Shown: piece by piece, positions 2,595 through 40,073 of the stretch
Position numbering within the stretch: position 1 is the stretch's first letter
How the letters are laid out: every line of letters starts with the position of its first letter
Assembly: GCA_964538815.1 (NCBI GenBank)
Contig: CAZIHL010000001.1
Coordinates: 79,034 to 143,033 of the forward strand
Origin: an uncultured Candidatus Saccharibacteria bacterium
GTDB taxonomy: Bacteria > Patescibacteriota > Minisyncoccia > Phycocordibacterales > UBA5272
DNA: 64,000 nucleotides
Reading direction: 5' to 3'
The notes under the pieces: model-generated
What the model was told of the DNA's origin: nothing
The model's input: only the letters and a program-made list of their open reading frames with translations
The model's database searches: none
Translations under genes and position numbers: made by a program

Positions 2595-5500
2595 ATGGAG
2601 TTTTCTTTTTTGCGGGTTAGTATTTTTGTTTTTAAATTAGAGCTATTATTTTTTATGTCTAAAACAAAAATTATTAATGAAGGTCTTTTCGTGGCCAATT
2701 TACCTAAAAAGACTTTTCAAAATTTTAGAAAGCCTTTTATCGAGTTACCAAATTTAGTAGAAAATCAAATAATTTCTTTTAAAAAACTTTTAGAAGAAGA
2801 TTTAGAATCGATTTTAAAAGAATTAAATCCAATCAAAGATTACACAGAAAAAAAATTTGAATTAGAAATTATATCTTTTGAGCTTGTCGAACCTAAATAT
2901 TCAGAAGAGTATACAAAAGAAAATAAATTGACCTTTGAAGCATCTATCAGAGCTAAAGTTTTGTTACGAAATAAAATTTTAGGTACAGAAAAAGAACAAG
3001 AAATATTTTTAGCGTCATTACCTATGATGACTGTACACGGGACATTCATAATTAATGGTGTGGAGAGAGTAATTATTCCACAACTTGCAAGAAGTGCCGG
3101 GGAGTTTTTTGATTGCGAAGAAATAAATGGAAAGAAATATTTCTCAGCAAAAATTGTACCAAATCGTGGAGCTTGGGTAGAAATTATCACAGACGATGAT
3201 AACGACATGTTTGTAAAAATAGATAAAAAAAGAAAATTTTCTGTAGTTTCATTGCTTAGAGCTATCGGTTTTTCTACAGATAAGGATATAGAAAATGCTT
3301 TTAGTGGTAAAGATTTAGCTAAAGCTTATATTATGAATTTAGTAGCTAAAGATACTATAAAAACAGCAGACGAGGCTTATATAGATGTTTATAAAAAATT
3401 AAGAGACGGAGATCTTGCTACTGTAGAAAATGCTAAATCTTATATATTATCCTTATTTGGAAAAGAGAGATATGATCTATCTCCAATAGGTAGAATGAGA
3501 TTTAATAAAAGATTTAATATCGAAGGGGACGCAAAAGAAATGAAAAGGATGACTCTTTCAAAAGAAGATATAGTTTTAATTATAAATCATTTAATTGAAT
3601 TAAATAATAATCCAGAAGCAGAAGGAGACGATATAGACCATTTAGCTTCAAGAAGAGTTCGTTTTGTAGGTGAAATGTTAGGAATGAAAATCAAAAAAGG
3701 AATGCTTCAAGTAAAAAGATATATTCAAGAAAAAATGTCAGTTATAGATACTGATACTACTTTACCTGTAACTATTATAAATCAAAGATCACTTCAGGCG
3801 AGAATTAAAGAATTCTTTACAGTGAATCAGCTTTCTCAACTTATGAATCAAGAAAATCTTCTTGCTGAAATAGAGAGTTTAAGAACCTTATCAGCTCTTG
3901 GCCCAGGAGGACTTTCAAAAGATAGAGCTGGATTTGAAGTGCGCGATGTACATACTTCACATTATGGTAGAGTTTGTCCTATTCAAACTCCAGATGGAGC
4001 AAATGTAGGTCTTATTTTAAGATTGGCAGCTTACGCTAAAATAAATGAATTTGGAATAATTGAAACTCCTTATGTGAAAGTTAAGAATGGTAAAATTACA
4101 AAAGAGATAGCATATTTAAATGCTTTACAAGAAGAAAATACTGTTATTGCTCACGCTGGAATTAATTATGATGAAACTGGAAATATAAAAGATCAATTTG
4201 TTCAAGCAAGAAAAAAAGGACATCCAGCAATAGTTTCTAAAGATGAAGTCGAATATGTGGATGTGTCTACAAATCAAGCATATTCAATTGCTACAAGTAT
4301 GATTCCATTTTTAGAACACGATGATGCTGCTCGTGCATCAATGGGTTCAAATATGCAAAGACAAACAGTACCACTAATTTTGGGCGAAGCACCATATGTT
4401 TCAACAGGAATGGAGAGTGAAGCAGCAAGACATATTGGAAGACTAGTGCTTGCAGAAGAAGCCGGAGAAGTAAAATATGTTGATGCTAATAAAATTACAG
4501 TATCAGGAAGTAATGGTAAAGATAAAACTTATACTTTAGTAAACTTTTCAAGAACAAATAACTTTACAGTTTTCTATCAAAGACCAATTGTAAATGTTGG
4601 TGATAAAGTTAAAAAAGGTCAAATTATAGCCGATTCTTCATCTACACGAGGAGGACAGATTTCTATAGGGCACAATGTTCGTGTAGCATTTATGAGTTGG
4701 AACGGAGCAAATTATGAAGATGCTATTATTATCTCAGAGAGGTTAGTAAGACAAAAAAAGTTTTCTTCTATTCATGTTGAAGAACTTGTATGTAATGTTC
4801 GTGATACAAAACTTGGAGCAGAAGTTACAACACACGATATTCCAAATGTAGGAGAAGCTAAATTAAAAAATCTTGACGAAGAAGGAATAATCAGAATCGG
4901 TGCAGACGTAAGAGCTGGCGATATTCTTGTTGGAAAGATTACTCCAAAAGGAGAAACTGAACTTACTCCAGAAGAAAGATTGCTAAGAAGTATTTTTGGT
5001 GAAAAAATACGTGATGTAAAAGATACTTCTCTAAGACTTGATAATGGAAAAAGAGGAAGAGTAATTGGTATTAAAGTTTTCTCAAGAGAAAGAGGAGATA
5101 CACTTGAAAGTGGTGTTATTAAAAGAATTCATATTGAAGTAGCACAACTTCGTGATATTTCAGTTGGAGATAAATTAGCCGGAAGACATGGAAACAAAGG
5201 TGTTATCTCAAGAATTCTTCCAATTGAAGAAATGCCATTTACAGCCGATGGAGAACCGATTGATATTATTTTGACTCCACTTGGTATCCCATCAAGAATG
5301 AATATTGGACAGATTTTAGAAATGCATCTCGGTCTTGCAGCACATACACTTGGTTATCAAGCTATGGTACCAGTGTTTGCTGGGTCAACAGATGAAGAAA
5401 TCAGAGACGAACTTGTAAGAGCTGGTTATGATGAATCTGGAACTGTAGACTTATTTGATGGAAGAACAGGAGAAAAATTTGCAGATAAGGTAGCAATCGG

Positions 5501-35169: not shown

Positions 35170-35242
35170 GCCAATATAGCTCAGTTGGTAGAGCACATCC
35201 ATGGTAAGGATGAGGTCATCAGTTCGATCCTGATTATTGGCT
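35170..35242 (+). tRNA. tRNA-Thr(GGU)
   Basis: Acceptor GCCAATA/TATTGGC, anticodon stem CATCC/GGATG with loop ATGGTAA, T-loop TTCGATC. Confidence 0.85.
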
Positions 35243-35375
35243 CCAGTTTTGTAGAAAAAGACACAGAAGACCCAAGAGAGTGGGACGCGCTCCGCTCGGC
35301 AACCCCGAAAGAAAAATGTCTCTTGCTTTTTTGATTTGCGCAGGTTTTCGCTTCGGGATTTTTCGGCGGCGGCTA
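35241..35375. repeat. left arm of a 135-bp terminal inverted repeat (IR-L)
   Basis: Reverse complement of 38331..38466 with only about 4 mismatches. Begins within the last nucleotides of the tRNA-Thr (ctccag). Confidence 0.85.
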
Positions 35376-35404
35376 TGGACAAAAACGACTAAAACTGCTA
35401 AAAT
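35376..35404 (+). promoter_or_regulatory. putative sigma70 promoter TGGACA-N17-TAAAAT giving a near-leaderless transcript
   Basis: Hexamers and spacing read directly from the sequence. The ATG at 35414 lies about 3-5 nt from the predicted TSS. Confidence 0.45.
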
Positions 35405-35413
35405 TCATTTCAT

Positions 35414-38323
35414 ATGGAGAAGCCACATTTTGAAGCACGATTTGGACAAACAAAGAAGACGCTTGAATCTTCGCGAGCGGAAATAAATGAGTTTTTGAAA
35501 CAAGAAACTCTCGACGAACGAGATAGAGTTCGCCTCACTCGTGTTTTGCAATTAGTAGAACGCTATCAACCGGAACGAGAAGTTGAAGAACCAAAAGTTA
35601 ATAAGTGGCGAAGCTATCTCGAAAGCGTGTATCGTTTTTTACCGAGTCGAAAAAAAACGCAAAAACCAATTGAAAATATTTCCGCTCGCTCATATCTACT
35701 TGCTGAAAAAACAATCGCTTCACTTCGGGAACTTCAACATGTAGATTTCCAACTTGAACAAGAAAGTGGATTTTCTGAAGAAGAAGTTTTAAATCAAGAA
35801 CGACCGAGTAAAGTTGAAAGAGAGGAAACATTAGACACTTCTCTTACACTTGAATACGAAAAGAAAAATTGGGGTGTAGAACGAGTTTGTCTTGATGGTG
35901 TGCAAAATCACTTGCCATCAGACTCAAAAGGTGAGCATGTTTGGGTAAGATGTTTAGTTGGTGGCAAGTGGGTTTCTTTGACAGAAGCAAAAGACAAAAA
36001 AGATCAAATAGAAGCGGTGAGATTTGCAGACGATGGCGTTGGTTTTGATGTAAAAAATCTAGTACTTTTATATTCCACAAAAGCGGAGGAAAAAGAATCT
36101 CGCGGACAATTTGGAGAAGGTATGAAAATGATGGCCGCCGCGGCTCTGCGGGAGGGCTTGGAGCCGGAAATGGAATCTCAAGACTGGCGCGCAAAGCCAA
36201 CACCAAAAGAAGTAGAGGTTTTTGATACACGACATCAAAAAGAACGAGTTATTCAACAACTCTCGTTTAAAGTTGACTATTTAGCTGGCGAGCCAATGAT
36301 TGGTTCTCGCACTACTTTTCATAAGCCAACCGAAGCGTTTGTTGACGAGTTAATGCAAATTGAAAAGAAAGTTTTGGCTTTGCGCGAAAATTATCGTCCC
36401 GTTTTTGTGGGAAGTACGGGCGAAATTGTAGATCGTGAATCAGGAAGTCTATTTGTAAAAGGAATTTATGTTAGAGGTAAGAAAACTTTGTTTTCTTACA
36501 ACTTTGAAGATGTTGAAACAAACCGAGATCGCAACAGAATTGTTTCAGAAGGTTTAGAAAGAAGAATTGCAAAAATAGTTCAAGAAATTTCCGATAAACG
36601 ATTGGTTAAAACAATGCTTCAAAAAAGTATTGTGGAACCGGACGCAGTTGAAAGTTCTTTTTATGATCTAAGAGCCGAACATCCAACAGTATGGATTGAG
36701 GGATTTTATGAAGCATTTGGAAAAGATGCAGTTCTGGATACAGGTTTCAAAATCCCCGATACTTTCAAAGATAAGCCGTTGAACAAAGTTAAAGTGCCGT
36801 CTGGCATGCAGAGTTTGCTTTTGCGAGCGGGAGTAAAGACCGACCAAGAGGTCACACCTGATTTTTGGGAGGAAACAATCCCGACTTCCTTAACTCTTGA
36901 ATACGGAAAAGATATTTGGAATGAGGAAAGAATTTTACTTGACGCGGTGCAAAATCATTTACCGCACGATTCCGGCGGTTTAAATATCGGTTTGCGTTTC
37001 AAAACTAAAGATGGCAAGTGGCACTCATTTAGAGATTTACCAGATATTAAAGACGAAGAGGTAGAGTCCGTAAAAATTTATGATGATGGACGCGGATATG
37101 ACTCTCGTTTGCTCGGTTTTTTCTACTCTACAAAAGGAGAGGGTGAAAGCACCGGAAAATTTGGCGAGGGTTTGAAAATGTTGTGCATAGCTTCACTACG
37201 CAAGGGTATTGATATGACTTTGCGTTCTCAAAATTGGTCATCGAAACCGAGAGCGTTACGACAAGAAGTTGATGGAAAGCAAATTGATCAGCTTGTTTTT
37301 GATGTAATTCACGCTGTTAAAAAACAAGAAATGGACGATGATGAGGGGCTTTATCAAAGCAGTTCAACTACATTTTCAAACCCGACGCCGGAATTATTGC
37401 AAGAATTTCGCCAAATTAACAAAAAAGTTCTCGCAATAGAAAGAGCAAAACCAGTAGAAAGAACTTCAAATGGAGATGTACTTTCGCTTGATGGAGGAAT
37501 GGTTTATGTGCGAGAACTTTTGATTCCAGGAGACCACAATTTGCTTTTCACTTATCATTTGCCGAGATTGGAAATTAAAAATCGAGACCGAAGTTTTGTT
37601 GACCAACAAGAACTTACTCCGGCTATCGCAGGGGTATGGTCGGAGACCGAAAATCCTGAAGTTATCAAAAGTTTTCTTTTCAAAGCAAATTTGGAAGCGC
37701 AAAAAGGTGGCGGAAAAGATAAGGTCGAATTTTCGATGGATTTTACCCCCAAAGATACTGAAAACTGGAAAAAGATTTTCGAGGAAGTTTTTGGAAAAGA
37801 TACCGCTATTCGCGATATGCGCTCGGAAGATTTTGACGCTATGCAACAAAATATGCATGTCGGTTTGGAACTTGTATCTTTTCCAAGCGCAACATATCAA
37901 GTTTTGAAAAGACTTGGATTGCCAACATATGAATCTCGTTTATCTGAAATGACCGATGTGGAGCATATTCCTAACGAAGAGCTAACAGCAGAAGAAAAAG
38001 CGTTATTGGAGGTTTTAACAGCGATTGATGAATATTTACCGAACAATAGGCCGTCTGAGATTAAAGTCTATAAGCGCAAAACAGATGGTCAAAAAGTTGC
38101 AGCTGGTTTTGCTGATGGTGTAAATATTCATCTTTTGCGCGAAATTCTATCTGATTTTACTCACGCGGCAGATGTGTATGTTCACGAGAAAACGCATCAT
38201 AATACCGGTGGCGCACAAGACGCAAGTTCAGATTTCAGAAATTACCTAAGTTTTGCGCTGGGCAAGATGGCGTTAGATCAATTGAAAAAAGTTCGACCAG
38301 ATTTAGTAAAGACAGAGAGTTAA
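35414..38323 (+). CDS. 969-aa protein with two tandem GHKL (Bergerat-fold) ATPase modules and a C-terminal HExxH motif
   Basis: A duplicated module of about 350 aa. Each copy has an N-box-like LD[GA]VQNHLP.D, a G1 box DDG[VR]G[FY]D and a G2 box G[QK]FGEG[ML]K (Hsp90/MORC-like). C-terminal VYVHEKTHH. Foreign codon usage (CGN arginine, higher GC). Confidence 0.7.
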   Translation: MEKPHFEARFGQTKKTLESSRAEINEFLKQETLDERDRVRLTRVLQLVERYQPEREVEEPKVNKWRSYLESVYRFLPSRKKTQKPIENISARSYLLAEKTIASLRELQHVDFQLEQESGFSEEEVLNQERPSKVEREETLDTSLTLEYEKKNWGVERVCLDGVQNHLPSDSKGEHVWVRCLVGGKWVSLTEAKDKKDQIEAVRFADDGVGFDVKNLVLLYSTKAEEKESRGQFGEGMKMMAAAALREGLEPEMESQDWRAKPTPKEVEVFDTRHQKERVIQQLSFKVDYLAGEPMIGSRTTFHKPTEAFVDELMQIEKKVLALRENYRPVFVGSTGEIVDRESGSLFVKGIYVRGKKTLFSYNFEDVETNRDRNRIVSEGLERRIAKIVQEISDKRLVKTMLQKSIVEPDAVESSFYDLRAEHPTVWIEGFYEAFGKDAVLDTGFKIPDTFKDKPLNKVKVPSGMQSLLLRAGVKTDQEVTPDFWEETIPTSLTLEYGKDIWNEERILLDAVQNHLPHDSGGLNIGLRFKTKDGKWHSFRDLPDIKDEEVESVKIYDDGRGYDSRLLGFFYSTKGEGESTGKFGEGLKMLCIASLRKGIDMTLRSQNWSSKPRALRQEVDGKQIDQLVFDVIHAVKKQEMDDDEGLYQSSSTTFSNPTPELLQEFRQINKKVLAIERAKPVERTSNGDVLSLDGGMVYVRELLIPGDHNLLFTYHLPRLEIKNRDRSFVDQQELTPAIAGVWSETENPEVIKSFLFKANLEAQKGGGKDKVEFSMDFTPKDTENWKKIFEEVFGKDTAIRDMRSEDFDAMQQNMHVGLELVSFPSATYQVLKRLGLPTYESRLSEMTDVEHIPNEELTAEEKALLEVLTAIDEYLPNNRPSEIKVYKRKTDGQKVAAGFADGVNIHLLREILSDFTHAADVYVHEKTHHNTGGAQDASSDFRNYLSFALGKMALDQLKKVRPDLVKTES

Positions 38324-38330
38324 TTTCTTG

Positions 38331-38466
38331 ATAGCCGTCGCCGAAAAATCCCGAAGCGAAAGCCCGCGTAAATCAAAAAAGCAAGAGACATTTTTCTTTC
38401 GGGGTTGCCGAGCGGAGCGCGTCCCACTCTCTTGGGTCTTCTGTGTCTTTTTCTACAAAACTGGAG
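38331..38466. repeat. right arm of the 135-bp terminal inverted repeat (IR-R)
   Basis: Reverse complement of IR-L. Ends with ctggag (revcomp ctccag). Confidence 0.85.
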
Positions 38467-38530
38467 TGTCTTTATGACTTCGCTCGAACTTACTTTATCA
38501 AAAATTCCTAATGAATCCAAATGCGGACTC

Positions 38531-38574
38531 GGTTTTGCCAAACTATTTTTCTGGGGAAAAGGATTGGCAAAACC
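38531..38574 (+). other. stable hairpin (11-bp stem ggttttgccaa/ttggcaaaacc, 22-nt loop)
   Basis: Perfect complementarity seen directly. Followed by a GC-rich segment and a T8 run at 38636..38643, possibly a terminator for read-through from the 969-aa gene. Confidence 0.4.
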
Positions 38575-38705
38575 TCGGCTGTTTTCCCGCCCGCAGGAGG
38601 GGTCTGGGGAGGAATCCGCATGGGCTGGGCTTCCGTTTTTTTTGTGGCTAAAATGGCTTAAAAACAAAGGTTTTTTAGAGTTAAACTAGGTTATAGCGAT
38701 TTGGC

Positions 38706-38734
38706 TTGACAAAATAGACTAGATATGCTATACT
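38706..38734 (+). promoter_or_regulatory. consensus sigma70 promoter TTGACA-N17-TATACT
   Basis: Perfect -35 hexamer, 17-nt spacer, near-consensus -10. Predicted TSS about 38741. Confidence 0.6.
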
Positions 38735-38954
38735 TAACGCATAATTTGAGGCGGTAAAAATACTCCTTAAATTATGTAAATTGTTCTTTGATAAGCGAGA
38801 TTAGTGAAAATTTCTTTTGCTCTACTACTTCGTGAGTAGCATAGTATGTATCTCAATTTGAGGTATCTAGTGTGCTACTCATGTTGAGGAGCCCTTGATG
38901 CGAGGAACGTATCATTAAAAAAAAATTTTTGATATGATATTATGGTCTAACGAG

Positions 38955-39698
38955 ATGGGCGAGAGGGGGCGAGGAGCCTGGCTGTTATTTATAAAGGATG
39001 ACGAAGTCATCGTCTTCCGCGGCCAGAACATCCCCGGTGTGGTCGTCGTGCGCGGCACGGACTACACCAAGAACGGGAAGTGGTCTCACACCACCTACCG
39101 CCTCCAGCTTGTCCCTGGAGTTCGCCAGATAGCCGGATACTCCGGCTGGGAAACCGGTCGGTTCGTCGAAGGCCTCGGCTCCGCCGTTGGCTGCGCAACG
39201 CCCGACACGTGGGCGGACACGGCCAAGGCTCTTGGGGTTTCGGTCCCGAGCGTGATGGAGTTCCTGCGGAGCTGGCGTCCGAAAGCCGCGGCGAAGCTGG
39301 ACGAAGTCGAGCAGGCGTTGGCCGATCTCGAGGAAGCCTCCTCTCAACAGGAGACCGACTCGGTGATCGTTACCGTCTCCTTCGGTTCGCCGACCAACCG
39401 CGCCATCAGCGATGGCTACTGGGTGGCGCCGAAGGCGATCCCGGGCTACAATGCGGAGATCCACCTGAAGGATCGCTCGCAGGGCTGGAACGAGGGGAAC
39501 ATCGAGGTTGTCGGAATCTCCGGCACCATCCTCTCGGTCAAGCACTCGGCCGGAATGCACGGCGGTTACTACGCCGTGTCGGTCGCGGTGATACCCGGAA
39601 CGGAGACCGAGATCCCGCCCTTCGAGACCAGCAAGCCTTGTAACGGTGGTAACACCGTGTTGGGCGATGCCCTCCGTAAGGCAGGGCTCCGCAGCTAG
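38955..39698 (+). CDS. hypothetical protein encoded by a very high-GC, GC3-rich foreign CDS
   Basis: A 744-bp frame with GC3 almost entirely G/C and balanced amino-acid composition. The alternative frames are Arg/Gly-rich junk. The ATG at 38955 marks the switch from AT-rich to GC-rich sequence. The in-frame upstream ATG at 38934 is an alternative start. Confidence 0.6.
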   Translation: MGERGRGAWLLFIKDDEVIVFRGQNIPGVVVVRGTDYTKNGKWSHTTYRLQLVPGVRQIAGYSGWETGRFVEGLGSAVGCATPDTWADTAKALGVSVPSVMEFLRSWRPKAAAKLDEVEQALADLEEASSQQETDSVIVTVSFGSPTNRAISDGYWVAPKAIPGYNAEIHLKDRSQGWNEGNIEVVGISGTILSVKHSAGMHGGYYAVSVAVIPGTETEIPPFETSKPCNGGNTVLGDALRKAGLRS

Positions 39699-39747
39699 TC
39701 TCGTATCGTATTTCCAGTTTGAGAGGACTGGGTTAACAAAACCTCTC

Positions 39748-39799
39748 TCTGTCGATAAGTGTGTTACTTATCCTGATGAGTCCGAAAGGACGAAACAGA
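39748..39799 (+). ncRNA. hammerhead ribozyme, type III topology (open stem III)
   Basis: tctGUC cleavage site, then stem I GATAAG-tgtgtta-CTTATC, then CUGAUGA, then stem II GTCC-GAAA-GGAC, then GAA, then ACAGA pairing with UCUGU. Every conserved core position is present. Confidence 0.8.
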
Positions 39800-39931
39800 T
39801 TGTACCTTGAGAAAATTTAGTTCTCTCGTGAGTAGCGCAATGGATGTCTTAAAAAGATTTCTAGTGCTGTCGGATACTTCGGACCAATTACGAGAGGGGA
39901 AATAAAATAAAAATAAATTTATTGTATAGAA

Positions 39932-39968
39932 TAACTCCATAGCTGTCAGTCGGGAGTTATTTTTTATT
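39932..39968 (+). terminator. intrinsic terminator
   Basis: taactcc-(14-nt loop)-ggagtta followed by ttttttattt. Confidence 0.6.
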
Positions 39969-39999
39969 TCTCACAATTTTGTTAAAATGTGCTTTAAGG

Positions 40000-40073
40000 C
40001 CATCTTAGCTTAGTTGGTAGAGCACTTCACTCGTAACGAAGAGGTCTCGAGTTCGATCCTCGGAGATGGCTCA
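40000..40073 (+). tRNA. tRNA-Thr(CGU)
   Basis: Acceptor GCCATCT/AGATGGC, anticodon loop CTCGTAA, T-arm TCGAG-TTCGATC-CTCGG. One A:C mismatch at the base of the anticodon stem. Confidence 0.8.

Follow-up and report, generated by a model that had tools for sequence, protein, structure and literature searches.

A type III hammerhead ribozyme at a probable gene-cassette junction downstream of a high-GC gene in a Saccharibacteria genome

RiboJ is a synthetic insulator in which the sTRSV hammerhead ribozyme and a hairpin are placed ahead of a ribosome-binding site: cleavage strips the upstream context and leaves a structured 5' end before a standard leader and ribosome-binding site. Natural hammerheads of bacteria were surveyed by Perreault et al. 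2011 (PMC3088659), who found that type II occurs in bacteria at roughly the same frequency as types I and III, reported that hammerheads flank single genes in prophages, and proposed that they process long transcripts into gene-length mRNAs; in that study native polycistronic fragments from three bacteria cleaved, and circular products were sought and none found. [quoted passage not shown] Our literature search for hammerheads in Patescibacteria/CPR returned nothing relevant. The ribozyme that we analyse belongs to an already known class, the canonical type III, which occurs in bacteria and is abundant in phages.

The window, that is, the whole stretch of 64,000 nucleotides analysed here, carries at 39748-39799 of its forward strand the sequence of a type III hammerhead ribozyme (tctGTC/GATAAG-tgtgtta-CTTATC-CTGATGA-GTCC-gaaa-GGAC-GAA-ACAGA, with the slash at the predicted cut). 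All the invariant hammerhead nucleotides are present, including a non-G at position 17 (C39753), and the three-helix layout is that of the type: loops close stems I and II, the third stem is open, and stems I, II and III have 6, 4 and 5 bp, respectively (Table 1). The first-pass annotation had described a canonical type III hammerhead just downstream of a high-GC gene, and we find both the sequence and the adjacency as it gave them: the TAG stop codon of that gene, referred to as gene A throughout, ends at 39698, although the distance to stem III is 49 nt and not 48. Stems I and II are present in the minimum-energy fold, in which an alternative CUG/CAG pairing takes the place of stem III; such a displacement is common with energy models that ignore the hammerhead core. 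Conservation beyond pairing is seen at U15, G16 and G18 of loop 1 and at the AAA of loop 2 (positions of alignment A2, described below); the loop 1 U and G and the loop 2 AAA are invariant in that alignment and resemble the loops of sTRSV. Since a contact between the two loops is needed for fast cleavage at cellular Mg2+ (review, PMC6155905), these invariant nucleotides would fit a loop 1-loop 2 contact for fast cleavage at low Mg2+.

Table 1. Positions of the features discussed in the text, in window coordinates unless a related locus is named.
Feature	Position	Strand	Description
Sigma-70-type promoter	38706..38734	+	TTGACA, 17-nt spacer, TATACT, TG before the -10
5' hairpin, UAAUUUGAGG / CCUUAAAUUA	38742..38774	+	just 3' of the predicted transcription start
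Structured 5' leader of gene A	38776..38933	+	nhmmer match 38820-38916, E=3e-20; alignment A5
Gene A	38934..39698	+	254-aa ORF, protein of unknown function
Helix S1	UCCAGU 39713-39718 / ACUGGG 39727-39732	+	possible H-type pseudoknot with S2 (39713..39747)
Helix S2	GAGAGG 39721-39726 / CCUCUC 39742-39747	+	abuts stem III directly
Stem III	UCUGU 39748-39752 / ACAGA 39795-39799	+	5 bp, open
A15.1-U16.1 pair	A39795 with U39752	+	
C17	39753	+	predicted cut C39753/G39754
Stem I	GAUAAG 39754-39759 / CUUAUC 39767-39772	+	6 bp, 7-nt loop UGUGUUA
Core CUGAUGA (C3-A9)	39773-39779	+	
Stem II	GUCC / GGAC, 39780-39791	+	4 bp, GAAA loop
GAA (G12-A14)	39792-39794	+	
Truncated next-cassette leader	39802..39897	+	nhmmer match 39802-39866, E=1.5e-8; A5 row win_dn
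AT-rich stem-loop and T-run	39925..39972	+	stem 39925-39938/39953-39966; inverted repeat, fold
Gene B in L017	5317-6237		
Gene B in L047	940-1947		
Gene B in L001	1896-2891		
Gene B in L003	1932-3806		

The comparison with the Rfam Hammerhead_3 model (RF00008) that the first-pass annotation had proposed gave a significant full-length match at 39746-39801, with 44.2 bits and E=1.4e-8 in an E-value scan of 401 nt (39600-40000), or E=1.7e-7 when the same match is evaluated over the 5-kb island; the core was aligned without mismatch. The score is nonetheless under the RF00008 gathering score of 48.5 bits, which is a database annotation cut-off and no biological defining feature, and for this reason a default Rfam scan of the whole window lists six tRNAs only and leaves the hammerhead out. 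In the alignment the window copy departs from RF00008 at its loops, with 6 nt inserted in loop 1 and 4 nt missing from loop 2, so that the shortfall is a matter of loop lengths and leaves the core unaffected. A pairing-aware pattern search located type III hammerheads of the same build near gene A in many related loci, and 23 copies gathered in this way constitute alignment A2. As many as 99.1% of the pair cells of A2 are paired, a percentage that is inflated by the pairing-aware collection; the compensatory (both-side) changes, which are recognized in 13 of the 15 pairs and in all three stems, are not inflated by it. The covariation score of A2 is 0.883, versus 0.27 for shuffles and ~0.1 for slid registers. 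A covariance model built from A2, referred to as R1, scores the window hammerhead at 74.4 bits, with the window sequence itself among the 23 members of its building set, and yields 35 strong matches in 28 of 62 sources (the window and 27 loci), all on the gene strand. Only one of these matches is in the window, and neither Rfam (to E 1) nor R1 detects a second hammerhead or another ribozyme class in the 5-kb island. A score under the Rfam gathering cut-off could be read as a chance resemblance with no ribozyme behind it, but the E-value, the position kept in 27 related loci and the compensatory changes in every stem make the probability of such a coincidence negligible. Comparative sequence analysis confirms 39748-39799 as a genuine, intact type III hammerhead of a common phage/mobile-element subtype; it is active-looking, with cleavage predicted.

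How common this subtype is can be appreciated from viral sequences. The string comprising the core and stem II, CTGATGAGTCCRAAAGGACGAAA, occurs in 53 IMG/VR viral contigs, nearly always as part of a type III hammerhead and often 3-5 times per contig. These copies have a 6-bp stem I and a UG(U/A)GU loop, and the one in L066 is almost identical to the window copy; when 22 IMG/VR loci were searched with R1, 20 of them yielded full-length matches scoring 50 bits or more, 39 in total and as many as 5 in a single locus. Some of the IMG/VR records with CTGATGAGTCCRAAAGGACGAAA measure 322-457 nt, and by size only are taken to be satellite or viroid RNAs. The first-pass annotation had regarded a type III ribozyme as unexpected in a bacterium, a view contradicted by these 53 contigs as well as by Perreault et al. 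2011 and the De la Pena review, and its premise that bacterial hammerheads are mostly of type II is at odds with the frequencies of Perreault et al. 2011 quoted above. Its observation that the core and stem II are the same as in engineered sTRSV-type hammerheads is correct.

We have studied the context of the ribozyme in 61 related loci, of which 11 come from genome assemblies and 50 from metagenomes. A ribozyme recognized by R1 lies beside the gene A homologue, on the gene strand, in 27 of the 61. The titles of the 11 assembly loci are mostly CPR (Saccharibacteria, Kaiserbacteria, Moranbacteria, Uhrbacteria), with three from Proteobacteria or Bdellovibrionales bins; on the lineage names provided by these 11 titles among the 61 loci, the ribozyme-bearing relatives of gene A are mostly CPR. 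Of 45 assessable sources, 20 have a hammerhead downstream of gene A, within ~1.1 kb, and 5 have one upstream of it, within 500 nt. In four loci (L001, L022, L030, L054) ribozymes are found on either side of gene A, 0.94-1.43 kb apart; this co-oriented multi-ribozyme arrangement, seen also in the IMG/VR contigs, is absent in the window with its single ribozyme. In L001 two tandem hammerheads ~100 nt apart (4652-4706 and 4759-4813, the second one weaker at 42 bits) are located upstream of gene A. About half of the gene A loci have no detectable hammerhead, and no known ribozyme reached its Rfam gathering score as a substitute in the 18 ribozyme-less loci. L004 (1190-1310) displays a decayed junction, in which the pseudoknot and the 3' end (CGAAACAGA / CGAAACAGAACTGCAC) are kept, CUGAUGA is lost and the stem I region is replaced. 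Since half of the loci are without the ribozyme and one of them shows it in decay, it appears to be dispensable in some lineages.

Other recurrent neighbours of gene A are large serine recombinases, in 5 loci (L007, L037, L038, L042, L047), and TrmB-like regulators, in 7 (L001, L003, L010, L023, L031, L040, L045); their recurrence is consistent with a mobile element. A match to a CRISPR direct repeat (Rfam CRISPR-DR2) was noticed at 2918-2947 of L046, ~560 nt downstream of the gene A homologue.

Gene A is genuinely protein-coding, and its codon usage is foreign. The GC content of the gene is 63%, distributed as 0.60/0.48/0.80 over codon positions 1/2/3, against a GC3 of ~0.19 in the neighbouring host genes. 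The family comprises 224 homologues with 55-86% identity, and those that are named belong to Patescibacteria only; the GC content of the homologues ranges from 44 to 70% across flanking sequences of 24-69% GC. Many relatives (~345 aa) contain an insert of ~90 aa that precedes the conserved C-terminal tail, and gene A is a short form that is without it. The AlphaFold model has a pLDDT of 90.7. By sequence or fold, no match to gene A was found in Pfam, PHROG, PDB or BFVD, and the 224 homologues carry no Pfam domain. The gene is absent from curated phage and plasmid collections, and in IMG/VR only two contigs contain a homologue of its N-terminal half, neither of them near a ribozyme. A structured non-coding RNA was considered as an alternative identity for gene A, and was rejected on the GC content by codon position, the protein-like alignment with an in-frame domain indel and the confident AlphaFold model.

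The gene and the ribozyme are part of an island of 4.75 kb in which GC is raised, with tRNA-Thr(ggt) (35170-35245) on its left and tRNA-Thr(cgt) (39999-40072) on its right; the genome around the island has ~28% GC and housekeeping genes on both flanks. The identical locus is present in sample SRR12712853. The downstream terminator hairpin of the first-pass annotation is recognizable as an AT-rich stem followed by a T-run, but was not flagged at 39925-39972 by a consensus terminator scan; lying before tRNA-Thr(cgt), where the island ends on the right, it probably represents an intrinsic terminator. The island contains no integrase. A 143-nt inverted repeat (35241-35383 and 38324-38466, 95-97% identical), whose left arm begins within the 3' end of tRNA-Thr(ggt), brackets a 969-aa ORF; it could represent transposon-like ends, an inversion, or a long double-stranded RNA stem. 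A core of ~57 nt of the repeat arm recurs in the gene A elements of L017, L018, L026 and L047, and window positions 38520-38701 match L017 2117-2319. Within the 969-aa ORF itself (35414-38323, ~40% GC) a segment is duplicated, as 95-nt repeats spaced 1047 nt apart, and two regions weakly resemble HATPase_c. The ORF has a solid match to phrog_6077 (function unknown; E 2e-32), and none of the 61 related loci contains a homologue of it.

The relatives reveal the full organization of which the window preserves a part. At their junctions the order is stop codon, helix or pseudoknot, hammerhead, leader of ~190 nt, ribosome-binding site, and next high-GC gene. The family leader consists of TTGCACTTTG, an A-rich stretch, three hairpins, an AGGAG site and the ATG; its profile has matches in 26 sources, some ahead of gene A and others between the ribozyme and a second gene (for example, L017 3804-4009 and 5135-5339). 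Its consensus fold contains 38 pairs, 15 of which show compensatory changes, and no Rfam family matched it (to E 1, 5-kb island). The second gene that follows ribozyme and leader is most often gene B, a high-GC gene of ~306-336 aa with the motifs NIDPQH and GWGGSPTIGGSPQGVSS, which has no match in Pfam and occurs in 14 loci, where it either follows the ribozyme and leader or precedes gene A. One complete copy of the element, L017 3700-6240, extends from the promoter and first leader through gene A, the pseudoknot, the hammerhead and a second leader to gene B. Gene B of L003 carries a fused P-loop domain, which L001 encodes separately (198-1529).

The first cassettes of these elements begin differently from the internal ones: a promoter and a 5' hairpin occupy the position held in internal cassettes by the ribozyme. 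The window is organized likewise. Its promoter matches 11 of 12 consensus positions, and the same promoter block is found upstream of the first leader in L005, L017, L052, L053 and L060; the hairpin block AATTTGAGGTGGTGAAAT.CC.TTAAATTA is also conserved in related loci. In the gene A leader of the window, hairpin 1 (~38828-38888) and hairpin 2 (38897-38913) can be recognized, while an A/T run stands where the family consensus has hairpin 3 and its AGGAG ribosome-binding site. The truncated leader after the ribozyme retains the GTACCTTGAGAAA block and, of hairpin 1, the 5' half, and is followed by neither a ribosome-binding site nor a gene; a tblastn search of the whole window found no gene B. 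The window copy therefore has a short gene A, an intact helix-pseudoknot and ribozyme, two degraded leaders, and gene B gone: as judged from the comparison with the family leader, its downstream cassette is lost, with only a truncated leader left.

Immediately 5' of the hammerhead lie the helices S1 and S2 (Table 1). Since MAFFT placed gaps inside the upstream helices, S1 and S2 were scored instead by script. S2 was found in 26 of 28 hammerhead copies of the related loci, with many compensatory variants, and is also part of the minimum-energy fold of 39680-39975; S1 varies in a paired manner and is less secure. The two may form an H-type pseudoknot, toward which S1 is only suggestive. A helix abutting the ribozyme is likewise a feature of the IMG/VR hammerheads, where it reaches at least 6 bp in 32 of 42 distinct copies (mean 7.9 bp versus 4.3 in shuffles); in the IMG/VR loci L065-L117 it often carries a tetraloop. 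The abutting helix may stack on the short stem III, or act as a stem-loop at the 3' end left by cleavage.

These observations bear directly on the regulatory role suggested by the first-pass annotation, which placed the ribozyme in the 3' UTR of gene A. In the window the placement is accurate; in the relatives, however, the ribozyme is intergenic and precedes a leader and a second gene, and the 3'-UTR position in the window results from the loss of the downstream cassette. According to that suggestion, cleavage would remove the terminator hairpin; acting as a negative control, it would expose the gene A mRNA to 3' exonucleases and keep the expression of a foreign gene low. The location of the window ribozyme between the stop codon and the sole terminator-like stem is as expected for such a negative control, and there is a precedent in mammalian Clec2 genes, whose 3'-UTR hammerheads lower expression. 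This tenet is challenged by the conserved helix/pseudoknot directly 5' of the cut: because the helix abuts the cleavage site on its 5' side, the cleaved mRNA would still end in a stem-loop. It is challenged also by the relatives, where the ribozyme lies ahead of another gene and outside a terminal UTR, and by features of the ribozyme itself, which has no attached ligand-sensing or switchable domain and whose conserved loop pair suggests constitutive fast cleavage. We consider it rather unlikely that the ribozyme serves to destabilize the gene A message by stripping its terminator.

On balance, we think it probable that the window ribozyme represents a phage/mobile-element subfamily of hammerheads that marks the junctions between gene cassettes, and whose role is the processing of mRNA between cistrons. 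A complete element would be transcribed from one promoter into an RNA comprising the 5' hairpin, a leader, gene A, the abutting helix/pseudoknot, the hammerhead, a second leader and gene B or another high-GC gene. Self-cleavage after C17 would split this transcript in two: the upstream mRNA would terminate with a stable stem-loop and UCUGUC bearing a 2',3'-cyclic phosphate, and the downstream mRNA would start with a 5'-hydroxyl and with stem I at its extreme 5' end, ahead of the usual leader and ribosome-binding site. In this way every cistron would become an independent message with defined, structured ends, in a manner similar to RiboJ. The promoter-proximal hairpin that takes the place of the ribozyme in first cassettes supports such an equivalence of structured ends among cistrons. 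From this architecture we infer that the RNA is cleaved in vivo, which ends cleavage would leave, and what effect it would have on the stability or translation of the mRNAs. Together, the features of the cassettes predict single-gene mRNAs whose ends are protected following cleavage, and the promoter and hairpin in the ribozyme's place in the first cassette, the common leader, and an abutting helix shared by bacterial and phage copies give these elements value as a test case. The ribozyme cassettes also mark two widespread, mostly-CPR protein families, those of gene A and gene B, to which no fold or function has been assigned.

In the window, cleavage would separate a gene A mRNA of ~1.0 kb from a non-coding tail of ~0.2 kb that includes the terminator. 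With one ribozyme and no downstream gene, the processing role is best read as a vestige in the window, where it would do no more than fix the 3' end of the gene A mRNA. One may go further and regard the ribozyme as a relic, carried in by a partly decayed cassette of recent acquisition and without any role in the present genome. The absence of gene B, the truncation of the downstream leader and the upstream leader without hairpin 3 and AGGAG would all agree with a relic, the GC3 of 0.80 versus 0.19 in host genes points to a recent arrival, and L004 provides a precedent for the decay of the ribozyme. Nevertheless, next to a degraded leader the ribozyme, both of its loops and the abutting helix are fully intact, and gene A retains an open frame and the conserved C-terminal tail; on these grounds we regard a mere relic as unlikely.

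Intercistronic processing, as proposed above, can also be extended in the opposite direction. The hammerhead, the helix/pseudoknot and the leader could together constitute a junction module by which a mobile, mostly-CPR operon swaps high-GC genes of unknown fold and expresses them independently, with each cassette needing cleavage for its translation or stability. Taken to its extreme, this idea would have it that the cassettes would spread via the cleaved RNA, which would explain why their GC is high whatever the host. We judge this extended reading to be distinctly improbable.

A different possibility is that paired hammerheads release a unit-length RNA that is then ligated and perhaps copied into DNA, as in retrozymes or viroid-like RNAs. 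The four relatives in which ribozymes flank gene A are compatible with such an excision, and so are the high GC of gene A regardless of host GC and the presence of the same ribozyme architecture in the viroid-like or satellite-sized records of IMG/VR. However, the window has a single ribozyme, and where ribozymes are paired the two copies of a locus differ and are not repeats of each other, their stems III being cross-compatible in 2 of 4 loci. A reverse transcriptase is not a recurrent neighbour in the related loci, contigs of ~1.2 kb are explained by the repeated leader, which breaks assemblies, and Perreault et al. detected no circular products for their bacterial hammerheads. Taken together, these points leave the excision of a circular or mobile RNA very improbable. 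An Obelisk- or viroid-like integrated RNA, or a circular replicon, was considered separately as the source of the ~1.2-kb contigs, and was rejected because the ends of two-ribozyme contigs are non-identical and the repeated leader accounts for the assembly breaks.

These results can be placed in the light of the known hammerhead systems. Among the closest are the hammerheads of prophages and phages (PMC3088659), which are also co-oriented, intergenic and often several per element; the present ones differ in that their hosts are mostly CPR/Patescibacteria, that the window holds a single ribozyme, and that they go with a single family of cassettes, in which a structured leader is repeated and the promoter is shared. 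Retrozymes and viroid-like RNAs have in common with our loci the type III hammerhead and, in some relatives, the pairs of ribozymes that bound a unit; unlike retrozymes, the window element has a protein-coding operon context, one ribozyme, no direct-repeat structure and no recurrent reverse transcriptase. The similarity to the sTRSV-type hammerheads of RF00008 is in the ribozyme itself: the core is the same, stem I has 6 bp and a loop starting with UGUG, stem II has the 4-bp GUCC/GGAC with a GNRA-like loop, and the open stem III is short; a related string with a GUGA loop 2 occurs in papers using engineered hammerheads. In contrast to the sTRSV type, the window copy is located in bacterial DNA, within an mRNA and outside a rolling-circle RNA replicon, and has an extra helix abutting stem III. 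Finally, unlike RiboJ, the junction of which the window preserves an example is a natural one, is found between cistrons, and is predicted to leave a 3' stem-loop on the upstream product.
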